Positions 24,463 through 60,538 are shown, counted from the stretch's first letter. The stretch is 64,000 nt of DNA from Patescibacteria group bacterium (GCA_038058635.1 JBBUAP010000001.1:384771-448770), one strand, 5' to 3'. Translations and numbers: made by a program. The notes: generated from the sequence alone by a model not told the origin.

Positions 24463-24545
24463 CGTCCGTCTCGCCCTTCGGTTCCGACCGAGGGGCATTC
24501 TTCTACCCTCGACAATCCTAACCTGTTAAGATAGAATGACACAGC

Positions 24546-25919
24546 ATGAAAAAAGTTCGAGTCATCTACGACCCCATCTTGCGTCACAAAGTTAAGCCGG
24601 TGACGGTTTTTAACGACGAACTGAAAAAACTTTCTGAAGAAATGTTTTTAGTCATGCATAAAAATATCGGCATGGGCTTAGCGGCCAACCAGCTTGGAGT
24701 CGACCAGGACTTACTGGTGATTGAATATCGGCCTGTTAAAGACCGTGATGAAGATGGAGATCAAGACGGCGGAAAACCGATCGGCCCTCTCGTCCTCTGC
24801 AACACCAAAGTGATTAAAACCAGTCAAATCACCGAGACGATGAACGAGGGTTGTTTATCGCTGCCGGGCTTAGAACTGCCTGTCAATCGCCCGAGCGGCG
24901 TCATTGTCGAAGCTATGGACCTGACTGGTAAACCAGTAACCATTAAAGCCAAGGGGCTACTAGCCCGAATTTTACAGCACGAAGTCGACCATTTAGATGG
25001 CATACTATTCACCGATCGGGCGAGTGGCCTGAAGAATTTAAAAAATTACGCCGGCATGAAGATTGTTTTCTTTGGCTCGGACAATTTTTCTGTCCCAATT
25101 TTCCAAATACTCATTGAAAGCGGTTTGAATGTGATTGCCGCCGTGACCGAAACCGACAAACCGGCTGGCCGAGGCAACCAACTCACCATTACGCCCATCA
25201 AATCCGTTGCCACGGATGCCGGAATTGCGGTCGTCCAGCCCCAAACGAAAACGGAAATCATCGAGATTCTTCGTCAGCTCAAGCCAGATTTGATCGTGCT
25301 GGCTTCGTACGGCAAGATTTTGCCAGAAGAAGCTCTCATCATCCCCACTTACGGGGCGCTTAATGTCCACCCGTCACTTTTACCAAAATATCGTGGTGCT
25401 ACGCCGGTCCAATCGGCGATTTTAGCGGGTGAAAAGACAACTGGCGTGACGATTATGAAGATGAACGCCGGCGTTGATACGGGGGAGATTGTCGCTCAAT
25501 CAAAAACAGAACTTTCGAATGTGGAGACTTTTATCTCGCTTCGTGACCGACTCTCCCAACTAGGCGCTAAATTGCTAGTCGGCCAGCTGCCGCTTTACCT
25601 TTCTGGTACAGCCAACCTCCAGTTGCAAGGCAGTGACTCAACTCAAACCACAAAATTAGTTAAAGAAATGGGCGAGATCGATTGGACGCAGTCAGCCGAG
25701 TCAATCGACCGACAGATCCGCGCTCTCAATCCCTGGCCAGGGACTTTTACCTTTGTCGGCGACAAGCGACTCAAAATTCTGGAAGCCAGTTTGAACGGCG
25801 ATCGGCTCATACTCAAAACTGTCCAACTCGAAGGCAAAAATCCCACTGCCTGGCCTGAATTTGTCCGGGGCTACGAGCAACAGTTGAAAAATTGCTCCTG
25901 GTACGGTAAAATATCCTAA
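24546..25919 (+). CDS. def-fmt: fused peptide deformylase / methionyl-tRNA formyltransferase
   Basis: A single 457-aa frame. Residues 1-170 carry PDF motifs 'GMGLAANQLG', 'EGCLSLPG' and 'HEVDHLDG'. From M171 the Fmt part begins: 'MKIVFFGSDNFSVP' and 'NVHPSLLPKYRGATPVQSAIL'. I checked codon by codon across 25032-25058 and found no stop. Confidence 0.9.
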   Translation: MKKVRVIYDPILRHKVKPVTVFNDELKKLSEEMFLVMHKNIGMGLAANQLGVDQDLLVIEYRPVKDRDEDGDQDGGKPIGPLVLCNTKVIKTSQITETMNEGCLSLPGLELPVNRPSGVIVEAMDLTGKPVTIKAKGLLARILQHEVDHLDGILFTDRASGLKNLKNYAGMKIVFFGSDNFSVPIFQILIESGLNVIAAVTETDKPAGRGNQLTITPIKSVATDAGIAVVQPQTKTEIIEILRQLKPDLIVLASYGKILPEEALIIPTYGALNVHPSLLPKYRGATPVQSAILAGEKTTGVTIMKMNAGVDTGEIVAQSKTELSNVETFISLRDRLSQLGAKLLVGQLPLYLSGTANLQLQGSDSTQTTKLVKEMGEIDWTQSAESIDRQIRALNPWPGTFTFVGDKRLKILEASLNGDRLILKTVQLEGKNPTAWPEFVRGYEQQLKNCSWYGKIS

Positions 25920-26464
25920 TGTTAGTCGTCAGATTAAAGCGAATCGGCAAAAAGAACCAACCAACTTACCGTATTGTCGTGGCCGAACATTCCAACGCCG
26001 TCAACGGCCCATTTGTTGAAGACATTGGTTTTTACAACCCTCACACCAAGACTATTTCCGTCGATCAAGAAGCGGTCATCGGCTGGATGAACAAGGGCGC
26101 TAAGCCGTCCAATCGGGTCGCTCGATTACTCGAAAAAGAAAAAGTTCAGCACAAATCTGTTGTCGTTATTCAGTACCACAAAGCGTCGAAGAAAAAGGTT
26201 GAAGAGACGAAGCCAGCTCCTAAAGCGGAGACAGCGACCGACTTGCCCGCCGTAGCTTTAGCGGAGGAGGGAGAGACTGCTGAAGCGCCAACAGAGGGTG
26301 AGACCACCGAAACTACCGAGGAAGCTCCAGCTGAAACATCCGAGGAAGTAGCTACGACCGAAGAAGAAGCTCCTGCTGAGGAAGCGACCGAGGATGTAGT
26401 TGAAACACCCGAAGCTACCGAAGAGCCTGCTGAAAACAGTGAGCCCGTCGAATCTGCTGCCTAA
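25919..26464 (+). CDS. rpsP: 30S ribosomal protein S16 with ~95-aa acidic E/T/A-rich tail
   Basis: 'MLVVRLKRIGKKNQPTYRIVVAE...GFYNP', followed by a low-complexity tail. Confidence 0.9.
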   Translation: MLVVRLKRIGKKNQPTYRIVVAEHSNAVNGPFVEDIGFYNPHTKTISVDQEAVIGWMNKGAKPSNRVARLLEKEKVQHKSVVVIQYHKASKKKVEETKPAPKAETATDLPAVALAEEGETAEAPTEGETTETTEEAPAETSEEVATTEEEAPAEEATEDVVETPEATEEPAENSEPVESAA

Positions 26465-26553
26465 GACTTCTTTACAACAATCTTTGTTTTTGTTACAAAT
26501 TGCTTGTTACGAATACAGAACGCCGTCAAATCTAATTTTCTACAAAGGAGAAA

Positions 26554-27018
26554 ATGCCAGCTAAAACAGAATTAACCGACCAAGAGTTTGTTGAGAATAT
26601 TGTTAAAGCCATTGTCGATCACCCAGAAGAAGTCGTTACCGGCCGGACGCTCGATGAGCGCGGCGTCTTGATTCAACTGACTGTCAACCGCGAAGATATG
26701 GGCAAAGTCATCGGACGAGAAGGTCGCACCGCCAAAGCGATTCGTTCCCTTTTGCGTGTTTTTGGGGCCCGTAACGAATCCCGAATTAACTTGAAAATTG
26801 TTGATCCCGAGGGTGGTACTGGTGATATTCCGGAAGAATCTGCCACCAAACCAGCGCCCGCTAAAAAAACCGAAAGTTCGGTCCCAGCGGAAAAACCAAC
26901 AGAAACAACCGAAAAAGTAGACGACTTGTCCGCCGAAACTTCAGTGAAGGCGGAAGCGCCCGTCGCCGAAATGTCTGCTGAAAAACCGATCGAAGAAAAA
27001 GCCACCGGCGTTTTCTAG
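26554..27018 (+). CDS. KH-domain RNA-binding protein (YlqC/UPF0109-like) with low-complexity tail
   Basis: 'MGKVIGREGRTAKAIRSLLRV', located between rpsP and trmD. A GGAG SD is present. Confidence 0.8.
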   Translation: MPAKTELTDQEFVENIVKAIVDHPEEVVTGRTLDERGVLIQLTVNREDMGKVIGREGRTAKAIRSLLRVFGARNESRINLKIVDPEGGTGDIPEESATKPAPAKKTESSVPAEKPTETTEKVDDLSAETSVKAEAPVAEMSAEKPIEEKATGVF

Positions 27019-58246: not shown

Positions 58247-58474
58247 GGTATTTTTGACATCCGGCTTTCGGTTGGCTACTGTTTAGTTCTCGCGCCACAC
58301 ACCGCATCCGCAGTGTTGTGGATAATAACAAAGCGAATAGGATAACCCGTTGCACTGGCTAAAAACACCGGTCTAGAACGATGTGGAAGACACGGGTAGT
58401 TCGTAAGAGGTAGACTTCTCGTTACGACAGTCGGAGCAGGTGCAAATGTGCCGACTAGCTTTCAGACTCCTCAT

Positions 58475-58508
58475 GGCGAAGCCAAGTCTGGCTTCGCCAC
58501 TTCTTTTC
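58475..58508 (+). terminator. intrinsic terminator 230 nt downstream of the GT4 stop
   Basis: GGCGAAGCCA AGTC TGGCTTCGCC followed by ACTTCTTTTC. Confidence 0.55.
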
Positions 58509-58597
58509 ATCTTCGGTCCTCAACTTTATTATTAAGGAAGTGATGATATCTTTTTCTTGGCTTGGTTTTCTCCATATATTCGGGTAAAATAGACTAA

Positions 58598-60538
58598 ATG
58601 AGTGCTGAATATTCTGCCAAACAAATTACTGTTCTAGAGGGTCTAGAACCGGTCCGCAAAAGGCCGGGAATGTACATTGGCGGAACCGGTATCGAAGGAC
58701 TTCATCATTTAGTTTGGGAAGTTTTAGACAACGCTGTTGATGAAGCGATGGCGGGGCACGCTAACCATGTTTCGATCGAGCTGAATGCCGACGGCACCGT
58801 TTCGGTCGAAGATAACGGCCGCGGGATTCCGGTTGATATTCATGCCACGACGAAAGTCTCGGCGTTAGAAACCGTTTTAACCAAACTCCACGCTGGCGGT
58901 AAATTTGGTGGCGAAGGCTATAAAGTTTCCGGCGGATTGCACGGCGTTGGTGTCTCTGTCGTTAATGCCCTATCCGAAACGCTCAAGGCCGAAGTTTTTA
59001 AAGACGACAAACGCTATGAGCAAGAATACGAGCGCGGCAAACCAAAGTATGTGGCAAAGGAAGTCGGCACATCTGACAAGCGCGGGACGCGAATTACTTT
59101 CAAGCCCGACTCCCAAATTTTTCCAACGATTGCCTTCTCACGCAAAACGATCATCGATCATGTCCGCCAGCAGGCCTATTTAACTAAGGGCATCTATATT
59201 GCCATCAAAGACGATCGAACCGATGAAGATGTTCCAGCTGAAGACAAGCAGTATCCAGCTAGTTACAACTTCCATTTTCAAGGCGGCATCGCCTCTTATG
59301 TCAGCCACCTAGTTCGTCACAAAAAATCTTTGATCGACAAGCCAATCTATCTAGCCAAAGACGTTGACGACAACCAAATCGAAGTAGCGCTGACTTATGT
59401 CAACGACTACAACGAGCATGTTTTCACCTTTGCTAACAACATCCACACCATCGAAGGTGGTACTCATTTGACCGGTTTTCGCTCGTCAATCACACGGGTC
59501 ATCACCGATTACGCTCGAAAACTTGCTGGCAAAGACGCCGATATGACAATCGTCGGCGAAGATATTCGCGAGGGCTTAACCGCAGTAATTTCCGTTAAAC
59601 TGCCTGATCCAGAGTTCGAAGGTCAGACCAAATCGAAGCTAGGCACCCCAGCTATGCGCGGCCATGTCGAAACCGTTGTGAACGAAGGTTTGCAGCGTTG
59701 GTTTGAAGAGCATCCTTCAGAAGCCCGAACAATCGTTGAAAAGATTTCATTGTCGGCTCGAGCACGATTAGCCGCCAAAGCCGCTCGCGAAGCGGTCGTT
59801 CGCAAAGGCGCCCTCGAAGGTATGACCTTACCAGGCAAACTAGCCGACTGCTCCGAACGCGATCCCGCCAAAAGCGAGCTATATATAGTAGAGGGAAATA
59901 GTGCGGGCGGTAGTGCCAAAAGTGGCCGCAATCGCAAATTCCAAGCCATCTTACCTTTGCGTGGTAAAATCCTTAATGTTGAAAAAGCCCGTTTAGACAA
60001 AATGCTAATCAACGAAGAGATCAAGTCGATGATTGTTGCCATGGGCATGGGCGTCGGCGAAGAAAAAAATGTCGACAAGGTTCGCTACCACTTTATCGTG
60101 ATAATGACCGATGCTGATGTGGACGGCGCCCACATTCGAACGCTCTTGCTAACTTTCTTTTATCGTCATTACCCCGAAGTTATCGAGAAAGGATATCTCT
60201 ACATCGCCCAGCCGCCACTTTTTGGTGTGCAGTACAAAAAGGGCGTTGAGTATGTCCACAGCGAAGCTGAGCGCGAAGAAGTCCTGACAAAAATCAAAAA
60301 GGACAACCCGACCCTCACGGGCGTCAACGTCCAGAGATATAAGGGTTTGGGTGAGATGAATCCGGAGCAGCTCTGGGAAACAACGCTTAACCCGGCCAAT
60401 CGAGTTTTACTGCGAGTAACCGTTGACGATGCTGAAAAAGCTGACGAAATCTTTTCCGACTTAATGGGCGAAGATGTCCTGCCCCGCAAACGCTTTATCC
60501 AGAACAAAGCAACGAGTGTAAGGAACCTAGATATTTAA
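58598..60538 (+). CDS. gyrB: DNA gyrase subunit B
   Basis: '[16 protein letters not shown]', '[10 protein letters not shown]' and '[12 protein letters not shown]'. Confidence 0.97.

Follow-up and report, generated by a model that had tools for sequence, protein, structure and literature searches.

The stretch of DNA analyzed here (the window) comprises 64,000 nucleotides (nt) of a Patescibacteria genome (GCA_038058635.1, JBBUAP010000001.1:384771-448770; positions are counted from its first letter) in which many genes carry a hexamer resembling a promoter -10 box shortly upstream of the start codon and lack a Shine-Dalgarno (SD) sequence. The window has a guanine-plus-cytosine (GC) content of 48.3% and contains six transfer RNAs (tRNAs) and one RNase P RNA. 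Gene identities were confirmed by Pfam, and TGA acts as a stop codon at which open reading frames (ORFs) end. The protein encoded by uvrA2 shares 91% and 85% identity with its counterparts in two metagenome-assembled genomes (MAGs) designated "uncultured Candidatus Saccharibacteria" (loci L001 and L002) and finds no match above 62% identity in other phyla. The same DNA is present in Hainich groundwater assemblies (ENA ERZ1292632, Hain_H43). Judged by sequence, the host is a groundwater MAG of Candidatus Saccharibacteria (TM7), a lineage of Patescibacteria belonging to the Candidate Phyla Radiation (CPR).

Loci L001 and L002 are collinear with the window between 43 and 61 kb and share ~75% DNA identity with it inside genes. 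Seven metagenome loci (L081-L087) and four more genomes (L159, L160, L162 and L163, with 52-57% identity in the def-fmt protein) are collinear with the region between 16 and 36 kb; L162 is the complete genome CP066697.1 (768,650 base pairs). Two distant loci with the same def-fmt fusion (L161 and L165) have 45% def-fmt identity. A further 68 metagenome def-fmt loci with less than 45% identity (L088-L155) served as negative controls only; they were dropped as candidate distant Saccharibacteria, those checked for synteny (loci of at least 8 kb) being non-syntenic.

Curation of 63 genes yielded 20 genes of leaderless type (hexamer 6-8 nt from the start codon), four near-leaderless genes (spacers of 9-10 nt, with leaders of ~1-4 nt expected), 19 SD-led genes, 12 coupled genes and eight unclear genes. 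Table 1 lists every member of the first two groups. Fourteen of these sites had been named in the original prediction, and each hexamer, spacer and ATG given there proved exact, including the spacers of LCP (8 nt), the ABC ATPase (8 nt), the desulfurase (9 nt) and thrS (10 nt). Our analysis adds VKOR, HTH 5913, lgt, lepB, priA, rpsP, orf27758 and gap to the strict group and ligT and 2-hydroxyacid dehydrogenase (2-HADH) to the near-leaderless one. The start codon is ATG at 23 of the 24 genes and GTG at one, and in 16 of the 20 strict cases no possible start lies upstream of the chosen ATG or GTG. Pfam domains begin a few residues after the chosen starts. An SD match of 5 nt or more was found at none of the 24 sites.

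Table 1 Start-site features of the window and discordant gene calls in source assemblies (aa, amino acids; UTR, untranslated region)
Feature	Position	Strand	Class	Layout
thrS	880..898	+	Near-leaderless	TACAAT, 10 nt, ATG; expected leader ~3-4 nt; GGAG just 2 nt from ATG
VKOR	4443..4457	-	Leaderless-type	TGgTAAACT, 6 nt, GTG; sole non-ATG member
HTH protein (HTH 5913)	5911..5925	-	Leaderless-type	TGgTATTAT, 6 nt, ATG
LCP (LytR-CpsA-Psr)	10173..10189	-	Leaderless-type	TAAAGT, 8 nt, ATG
infC	17365..17376	+	SD-led	GGAG, 5 nt, probable ATC start at 17374
lgt	19285..19301	-	Leaderless-type	Weak TACCCT, 8 nt, ATG; TTGACC at 17-nt spacer
LigT-like (ligT)	19911..19928	-	Near-leaderless	TAGAAT, 9 nt, ATG
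lepB	20079..20094	+	Leaderless-type	TACAAT, 7 nt, ATG at 20092 (third in-frame ATG)
priA	21892..21906	+	Leaderless-type	TATTCT, 6 nt, ATG at 21904
def-fmt	24532..24548	+	Leaderless-type	TAGAAT 24532-37, 8 nt, ATG; -35 TCGACA at 17-nt spacer
rpsP	25907..25921	+	Leaderless-type	TAAAAT, 6 nt, ATG; TTGAAA at 17 nt; promoter within def-fmt 3' end
KH (khpA-like)	26545..26556	+	Contrast (SD-led)	AAGGAG, 3 nt, ATG; conserved in all relatives
trmD	27075..27089	+	Leaderless-type	TAGAAT 27075-80, 6 nt, ATG
orf27758 (93 aa, conserved, no family match)	27744..27760	+	Leaderless-type	TTGCTT, 17 nt, TATTCT, 8 nt, ATG
rplY (bL25)	28046..28062	+	Leaderless-type	TATAAT 28046-51, 8 nt, ATG
ABC ATPase	31837..31853	-	Leaderless-type	TAGACT, 8 nt, ATG
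2-HADH	35276..35294	+	Near-leaderless	TACGCT, 10 nt, ATG
gap	40645..40660	+	Leaderless-type	Weak TACGGT, 7 nt, ATG at 40658; weakest member
Cysteine desulfurase	43176..43193	+	Near-leaderless	TGgTAGAAT, 9 nt, ATG
nfo	46012..46026	+	Leaderless-type	TAATAT 46012-17, 6 nt, ATG
SRPBCC/AHSA1	47235..47250	-	Leaderless-type	TAAAAT, 7 nt, ATG
uvrC	49646..49661	-	Leaderless-type	TATACT, 7 nt, ATG
uvrA2	52581..52595	-	Leaderless-type	TGgTACAAT, 6 nt, ATG
Orphan orf52867	52867..52882	-	Contrast	AAGGAGGT, 2 nt, ATG; absent from L001, L002
uvrB	55297..55312	-	Leaderless-type	TAGAAT, 7 nt, ATG
orf55460	55445..55462	+	Contrast	AAGGAGGTG, 6 nt, ATG; conserved 5' UTR of ~65 nt
Sugar transferase	55781..55796	+	Leaderless-type	TACAAT 55781-86, 7 nt, ATG
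gyrB (full promoter)	58562..58600	+	Leaderless-type	TTGGTT, 17 nt, TAAAAT 58585-90, 7 nt, ATG
Discordant source gene calls (VKOR, sugar transferase)	L156 13152-13382; L157 7063-7461; L158 5270-6616			

Enrichment of the hexamer at gene starts

Enrichment was measured at the first ATG of each non-overlapping ORF of at least 80 aa, so that the motif plays no part in the choice of start. In 62 such ORFs, TANNNT lies at spacers of 6, 7 and 8 nt in eight, six and six genes, respectively; this is the sole peak, the mean at other offsets being ~1.2 genes. With ORFs that overlap RNA genes removed, 19 of 59 first ATGs (32%) have the hexamer at a spacer of 6-8 nt, compared with 3.9% of 1,537 other ATGs in the window (binomial p=5e-13) and 4.5% of ATGs lying wholly in non-coding DNA (p=6e-12). 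A peak at this spacing, beyond what AT-rich DNA would yield, was thus borne out within the window. With TANNNT at a density of just 1.8% in non-coding DNA, AT-richness does not account for the peak. A clade-wide histogram of 268 genes contains 33, 21 and 21 genes at spacers 6, 7 and 8 (75 of 268, versus 5.5% expected), decays over spacers 9-13 and remains at or below background at spacers 2-5. Such an abrupt onset at spacer 6 would be expected if transcription were barred from beginning within the ORF.

The same analysis revealed no enrichment in control loci from Paenibacillus (Firmicutes), Clostridia and Chloroflexi. There was also none at offsets 20-30 upstream of the start, so the window lacks a TATA placement of the archaeal type (group D). 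Loci from other Patescibacteria (L003, L005, L007 and L016; 37% GC) had the hexamer at 21% of starts where 14% was expected, which is no clear enrichment. Actinomycetota loci failed as a positive control; they held too few genes, were high in GC and had GTG starts that the first-ATG rule misses. In three non-syntenic lake-metagenome loci retrieved by def/fmt similarity (L101, L102 and L104), 11 of 41 genes have TANNNT with a spacer of exactly 6 nt. These loci are probably Actinobacteria and, as such, an unplanned positive control.

It is very improbable that the pattern is an artefact of AT-rich intergenic composition, of upstream TAA or TAG stops or of wrong start choice, an explanation rejected at p<1e-12. 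Some hexamers do include a TAA or TAG, the starts of lepB, priA and orf27758 had to be curated, and the source annotations place the starts of VKOR and the sugar transferase differently. These points are outweighed by the low density of the hexamer, its excess over ATGs in non-coding DNA, the confinement of the peak to spacers 6-8, its absence from the Firmicutes, Chloroflexi and other control loci and the conservation of N-terminal protein sequence in relatives, which begins at the chosen ATG.

Promoter character of the hexamers

The 24 sites were aligned on the hexamer and compared with 1,612 other TANNNT hexamers at positions that had played no part in their selection. G occupies position -14, two bases upstream of the hexamer, in 19 of the 24 sites (p=2e-7), and T occupies position -17 in 20 (p=4e-9). 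Across a 17-nt spacer, the first -35 position is T in 19 sites (p=8e-8) and the third is G in 14 (p=1e-4). The logo for the clade, drawn from 74 sites, consists of TTGAnA and TAaAAT separated by 17 nt, in which T stands at -17 and G at -14. The preference for G at -14 seems to resemble the actinobacterial extended -10.

The hexamer occurs at none of the 12 coupled, operon-internal genes compared with 24 of 51 other genes (p=0.002). The exception to the first-in-unit rule is rpsP, which has its own internal promoter. At the seventh base after the hexamer, 20 of the 21 genes with a 7-nt spacer have a purine (p=1e-5), and genes with a 6-nt spacer have the A of ATG. Terminator-like hairpins lie immediately upstream of the uvrA2 (52633-52646) and gyrB (58474-58499) promoters. 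Together, the unselected features at -35, -17 and -14, operon position, the abrupt onset, the purine at +1 and the upstream terminator-like hairpins argue that the hexamers are promoter -10 boxes rather than translation signals. A scan with a generic sigma-70 consensus across 42-61 kb found 27 sites versus 19.5 expected and picked up the uvrB and SRPBCC promoters; it was discarded as evidence because it is too unspecific.

A different view would make TAnAAT a non-SD translation signal within a longer 5' UTR, of the kind found in Bacteroidetes-like "group B" genomes, with transcription starting further upstream. The element lies at an SD-like distance from the ATG, and an upstream transcription start is compatible with the present evidence, which is confined to sequence. 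Translation has no need of a -35 TTG at 17 nt, a G at -14 or a T at -17, yet all three accompany the hexamer. Group B motifs precede all genes (PMC6028130), whereas the element is missing at all 12 coupled genes; this absence and the -35/-14 features set the window apart from genomes with a non-SD ribosome-binding site. The terminator-like hairpins directly upstream of the uvrA2 and gyrB promoters also speak against this view, as does the use of canonical SD sequences elsewhere in the genome, which suggests a functional anti-SD. We consider a translation signal highly unlikely.

Conservation in relatives

In relatives with 52-91% protein identity, the hexamer, a spacer of 6-9 nt and the ATG are kept, whereas the letters of the spacer and the flanks have diverged. 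This geometry is retained at gyrB, uvrA2, uvrB, uvrC, the sugar transferase, nfo, the desulfurase, def-fmt, rpsP, trmD, priA, lepB, the ABC ATPase and 2-HADH. All three genomes compared at gyrB (window, L001 and L002) have TTGGTT, 17 nt, TA[AC]AAT, 7 nt, ATG. TAnAnT precedes def-fmt by 7-8 nt in L081-L083, L159, L160, L162 and L163, and GGAG has been gained in L084. The geometry of rpsP is kept in L081-L087, L162 and L163, with GGAG instead in L161 and L165, and trmD has the hexamer at 6-7 nt in L082-L085, L159, L162 and L163.

Other genes keep the arrangement with changes in letters and spacing. TACAAT of the sugar transferase lies 8 nt from the start in L001 and 6 nt in L002, and the desulfurase has TAAACT in L001 and TAAAAT in L002, each at 7 nt. 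L002 has TAGAAT at uvrC (6 nt), nfo (7 nt) and SRPBCC (8 nt, GTG start), and both L001 and L002 have TAGAAT at 9 nt from uvrB. At lepB, L159 and L160 have TATAAT at 7 nt and L162 has TACAAT at 8 nt; at priA, a 6-nt spacer follows TACAAT in L083 and L160 and TAAAAT in L087. For 2-HADH, the corresponding elements are TACAGT at 6 nt in L162 and TAGTAT at 7 nt in L084. TAAACT precedes the ABC ATPase by 8 nt in L081, 6 nt in L084 and 7 nt in L159.

Enrichment calculated for single loci is significant in L159 (5/23), L160 (6/25), L162 (5/22) and L163 (9/22) and is also found in L001, L002 and L081-L085. In L161 and L165, rpsP and trmD are SD-led, and L164 exhibits no enrichment at all. The SD sequences at these orthologues, the result for L164 and the absence of a clear signal in other Patescibacteria indicate that the trait is specific to a clade and not shared by all Patescibacteria. 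Selection maintains the arrangement in which the promoter abuts the start codon.

Three of these loci have further features of their own. The def-fmt gene (24546-25919, +) encodes a 457-aa fusion of peptide deformylase and methionyl-tRNA formyltransferase, both of which act on the formyl-Met used in initiation; the same three-domain fusion is found in all 120 best database homologues. Between trmD and rplY, orf27758 (27758-28039, +) encodes a 93-aa, Cys-containing protein that is 82-96% identical in close relatives and is found throughout the clade, its TTGACA-type promoter being kept in all relatives; it has no match in Pfam, NCBIfam or PHROG. The 58-nt region between the divergent genes der and priA (21846-21890) consists almost entirely of 6.4 tandem ATTCGTA heptamers, directly followed by the TATTCT of priA.

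SD-led and coupled genes

At the 19 SD-led genes, the SD corresponds to as many as 9 nt of TAAGGAGGTGA. Those with names are DUF1653, bactofilin, infC, rplT, KH, rpiB, fba, rnhB, PRT and sod; the other nine ORFs have no Pfam match at E <= 0.001, and one of them, orf30209, has a single sub-threshold match to a zinc ribbon. Promoters of SD-led genes lie 14-65 nt upstream, and the short leaders that result carry canonical SD sequences of up to TAAGGAGGT. Thus, the two classes differ mainly in the distance from promoter to ATG. The SD sites listed in the original prediction are all present, but the ORF at 12227 is doubtful, as it lies inside the RNase P RNA gene.

The 12 coupled genes (folD, dsbA-like, orf8793, DAGK, rpmI, ABC permease, rpe, tktN, tktC, MBL, GT4 and gyrA) start no more than 10 nt from the upstream stop codon or overlap it and have neither hexamer nor SD. 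The idea of two initiation modes is therefore supported but incomplete, since these genes form a third class that had been overlooked. One of the eight unclear genes, uvrA1, has TACAAT 20 nt upstream and no SD, an arrangement conserved in L163.

The two modes had also been proposed to divide roughly between core and accessory genes. Pfam matches were obtained for 23 of the 24 leaderless-type and near-leaderless genes versus 10 of the 19 SD-led genes (p=0.002). In those parts of the window that relatives cover, conservation was seen for 17 of the 18 genes of leaderless type and for 6 of the 14 that are SD-led (Fisher p=0.004). Ascertainment bias affects the small ORFs 44491, 47630, 52867 and 55460, which came to notice through their SD sequences; when restricted to ORFs of at least 100 aa, the association still holds (p=0.002). 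Strain-specific orphans are essentially all SD-led, and to this extent the division stands. It does not extend to core genes such as rplT, infC, fba, rpiB, KH/khpA, sod and bactofilin, which are SD-led as well, or to the non-core genes SRPBCC, HTH protein, sugar transferase and LCP, which are of leaderless type. A gene's place in its transcription unit is at least as good a predictor of class as its coreness.

All orphan ORFs have positive coding scores in frame (0.08-0.28 bits/codon versus 0.28±0.10 for known genes) and look coding, if less strongly than known genes do; coding potential is ambiguous for orf40490, orf45947 and orf47630. A phage or mobile origin of the SD-led orphans was considered and set aside, searches of PHROGs and NCBIfam having returned no significant match.

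Several SD-led genes deserve separate mention. No ATG, GTG or TTG in infC is compatible with the N-domain of IF3, and the ATC at 17374 is its likely start. A non-canonical infC start is classic and is used for autoregulation; in E. coli, IF3 discriminates against leaderless mRNAs. The 67-aa product of orf55460 is 94% identical in L001 and L002, and the gene has a TTGACA promoter in the region upstream of it (55357-55459, +). Its 5' UTR of ~65 nt is nearly invariant in three genomes whose other intergenic DNA has diverged and holds a hairpin, GGTACGG...CCGTACC, with no Rfam match at the gathering threshold; this segment may be a conserved regulatory leader. Between the TTGAC box and the SD of the orphan orf28895 lies a (GA)n run, gagagagagagag (28850-28868, +), which is conserved in L082.

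Other features of the window

The RNase P RNA (11671-12373, -) measures 703 nt, compared with the 367 positions of the model, and has an insertion of ~330 nt at model position 136/137 in the P12 loop. Within this insertion lie, on the strand of the RNA itself, AGGAGG, 7 nt, ATG and an ORF of 76 aa (12227-11997, -). The codon usage of this ORF is coding-like (0.21 bits/codon versus -0.14 in other frames), and it has no family match. A 578-aa ORF with HTH and PEP-utilizer domains contains an in-frame GGAGGT, 7 nt, ATG (33486-33501, +), from which the product would be 325 aa; it is possibly an internal start or a fused gene pair. The tsaE and tsaB frames (10218-11010, -) overlap by ~47-115 nt, and a TsaE-like C-terminal motif, EWPE, occurs in the tsaB frame upstream of the likely TTG start of tsaB. 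This arrangement could be an overlap or a frameshift.

Discussion

About 40% of genes in the window, and roughly half of those that head a transcription unit, have a complete sigma-70-type promoter set directly against the start codon. The consensus layout runs from TTGAnA through 17 bp, with T at -17 and G at -14, to TAnAAT and, after 6-8 nt, ATG. RNA polymerase normally starts ~7 nt after the -10 hexamer, and leaderless mRNAs need a 5'-terminal AUG. By these two rules, the transcript would begin on the A of AUG when the spacer is 6 nt and 1-2 nt before it when the spacer is 7 or 8 nt, which would leave no room for an SD sequence between +1 and the AUG. The ribosome, together with formyl-methionyl-tRNA, would then bind the 5'-terminal AUG by the leaderless route, independently of SD/anti-SD pairing. 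Other genes of the genome would rely on canonical SD sequences on short leaders, and operon-internal genes mostly on overlap of stop and start codons.

The enrichment, -35/-10 features, operon position, +1 purine and orthologues all favor the leaderless interpretation (or one with leaders of 0-2 nt) that the original prediction put forward. We estimate a probability of about 80% that these are leaderless-type promoters which, at the predicted start sites, give rise to essentially leaderless mRNAs. A number of observations weigh against this interpretation. The leader lengths of 0-2 nt are themselves predictions, and spacers of 8-10 nt (about one-third of cases) imply leaders of 1-4 nt, which are not strictly leaderless. 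The hexamers of lgt (TACCCT) and gap (TACGGT) are weak, and the gap site is not conserved in L002. The rplY site is not conserved in L081, and relatives have TACAAT at 9-11 nt; at nfo, L001 has GGAG instead of the hexamer. In ~18 kb of out-of-sample flanks from the same genome, which hold mostly orphan genes, 3 of 21 genes have the arrangement, a marginal result (p=0.07). In both classes, the first 36 nt of the mRNA have less structure than internal windows, and the classes do not differ in this respect (p=0.29). Orthologous loci are non-independent samples, and the 16S 3' end, which carries the anti-SD, was looked for in all retrieved loci, none of which contains a 16S gene.

A rival account is that the promoters are real but yield very short leaders of 1-6 nt, with translation not by classical initiation at a 5'-terminal AUG but by another mechanism, for example unstructured, A-rich, SD-independent binding of the 30S subunit. 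The spacer distribution is broad, 6, 7 and 8 nt occurring at similar frequency and a tail reaching 13 nt. Relatives frequently have the hexamer 9-11 nt from the start of the gene in question (rplY, uvrB and orf27758), and in spacer-7 genes the purine at -1 points to a leader of 1 nt. Even so, spacer 6 is the largest single class in the clade (33/75), and there the A of ATG is exactly the seventh base. The choice of transcription start is flexible by 1-2 nt. In addition, genomes known by experiment to be leaderless have the same 6-8-nt spread (PMC6028130), and a study of Deinococcus deserti (PMC4007540) reports transcription beginning "exactly at or very close to" the AUG. Leaders of this kind seem unlikely as a separate account and constitute a refinement of the leaderless explanation rather than a true alternative to it.

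Given essentially leaderless mRNAs, a broader proposal can be made: that an environmental Saccharibacteria clade at the level of a family or order, delimited by shared synteny and a def-fmt identity of 52% or more and including CP066697.1, moved about half of its transcription units to leaderless expression. We hold this proposal tentatively, at slightly less than even odds. Promoters of the clade look actinobacterial (TANNNT and G at -14) at only 48% GC. Strain-specific genes of the clade are all SD-led. If true, CPR would gain its first documented example of leaderless expression on a wide scale, and the change of initiation mode, falling between lineages with a common def-fmt fusion, would be datable; the reduced CPR ribosome, or life on actinobacterial hosts that are rich in leaderless mRNAs, might be connected with this change.

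Should the start sites be confirmed, leaderless expression would extend from Actinobacteria, Deinococcus, Mollicutes and archaea, where it is mainly known, to CPR. Gene callers biased toward SD sequences appear to misplace starts in these MAGs: two assemblies give VKOR lengths of 76 aa and 132 aa, respectively, and the start of the sugar transferase is placed 15 nt downstream of the conserved ATG. The layout TTGnnn, 17 nt, TnnGnTAnAAT, 6-7 nt, ATG could serve as a template for expression cassettes in the new genetic systems for Saccharibacteria. The clade would also offer a tractable comparative system for the turnover of initiation signals, with conserved genes of leaderless type, SD-led orphans and distant orthologues that have SD sequences.

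Comparison with known systems

The geometry matches the architecture that GeneMarkS-2 designates "group C", here in a CPR lineage, and calls for no new mechanism. In group C genomes, most of which belong to Actinobacteria and Deinococcus-Thermus, the Pribnow box lies 6-8 nt from the start and 25-50% of operons are leaderless (PMC6028130); those that use genetic code 11 are almost all high in GC (MetaGeneMark-2 preprint, bioRxiv 10.1101/2022.07.25.500264). Among them, a member with 48% GC would be somewhat atypical. A full-text literature search found no paper that links leaderless mRNAs with Saccharibacteria, Patescibacteria or CPR. A preprint on the TM7x transcriptome contains no analysis of start sites, UTRs or promoters, and a 2025 promoter survey lists 188 TM7x start sites inferred from RNA sequencing, with leaders not discussed in its accessible portion. 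The anti-SD is retained in CPR except in one Parcubacteria subgroup (PMC9297842), which agrees with the strong SD sites of the window. CPR translation is otherwise unusual, with missing ribosomal proteins, smaller ribosomal RNAs and a shorter bS1 (PMC9297842).

As in Mycobacterium, Streptomyces, Corynebacterium and Deinococcus-Thermus, TANNNT lies 6-8 nt from first-in-operon starts, and 25-50% of transcription units are of leaderless type while the rest have SD sequences (PMC6028130; PMC4007540). The window differs from these group C genomes in its host, a Saccharibacteria member of the CPR with 48% GC, and in its spacers, which are spread evenly over 6-8 nt where group C peaks sharply at 6. 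Mollicutes such as Mycoplasma, which use code 4, provide a second group C parallel with a reduced genome, host dependence and GC well below actinobacterial levels; 30-60% of their transcripts are predicted to be leaderless (bioRxiv 10.1101/2022.07.25.500264). They belong to another phylum and use another genetic code, whereas the Saccharibacteria clade keeps strong canonical SD sequences elsewhere. Archaeal group D genes likewise have no 5' UTR (a prediction in the present case) and a promoter that abuts the ORF, but their TATA box lies ~26 nt upstream, unlike the bacterial -10/-35 pair found here with its -10 at 6-8 nt. For the translation step, the model is lambda cI and isolated leaderless mRNAs of E. 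coli, which present a 5'-terminal AUG without an SD. Such mRNAs are rare exceptions in E. coli; in the window, the corresponding arrangement is found at ~40% of genes, including gyrB, uvrABC, trmD and genes for ribosomal proteins.

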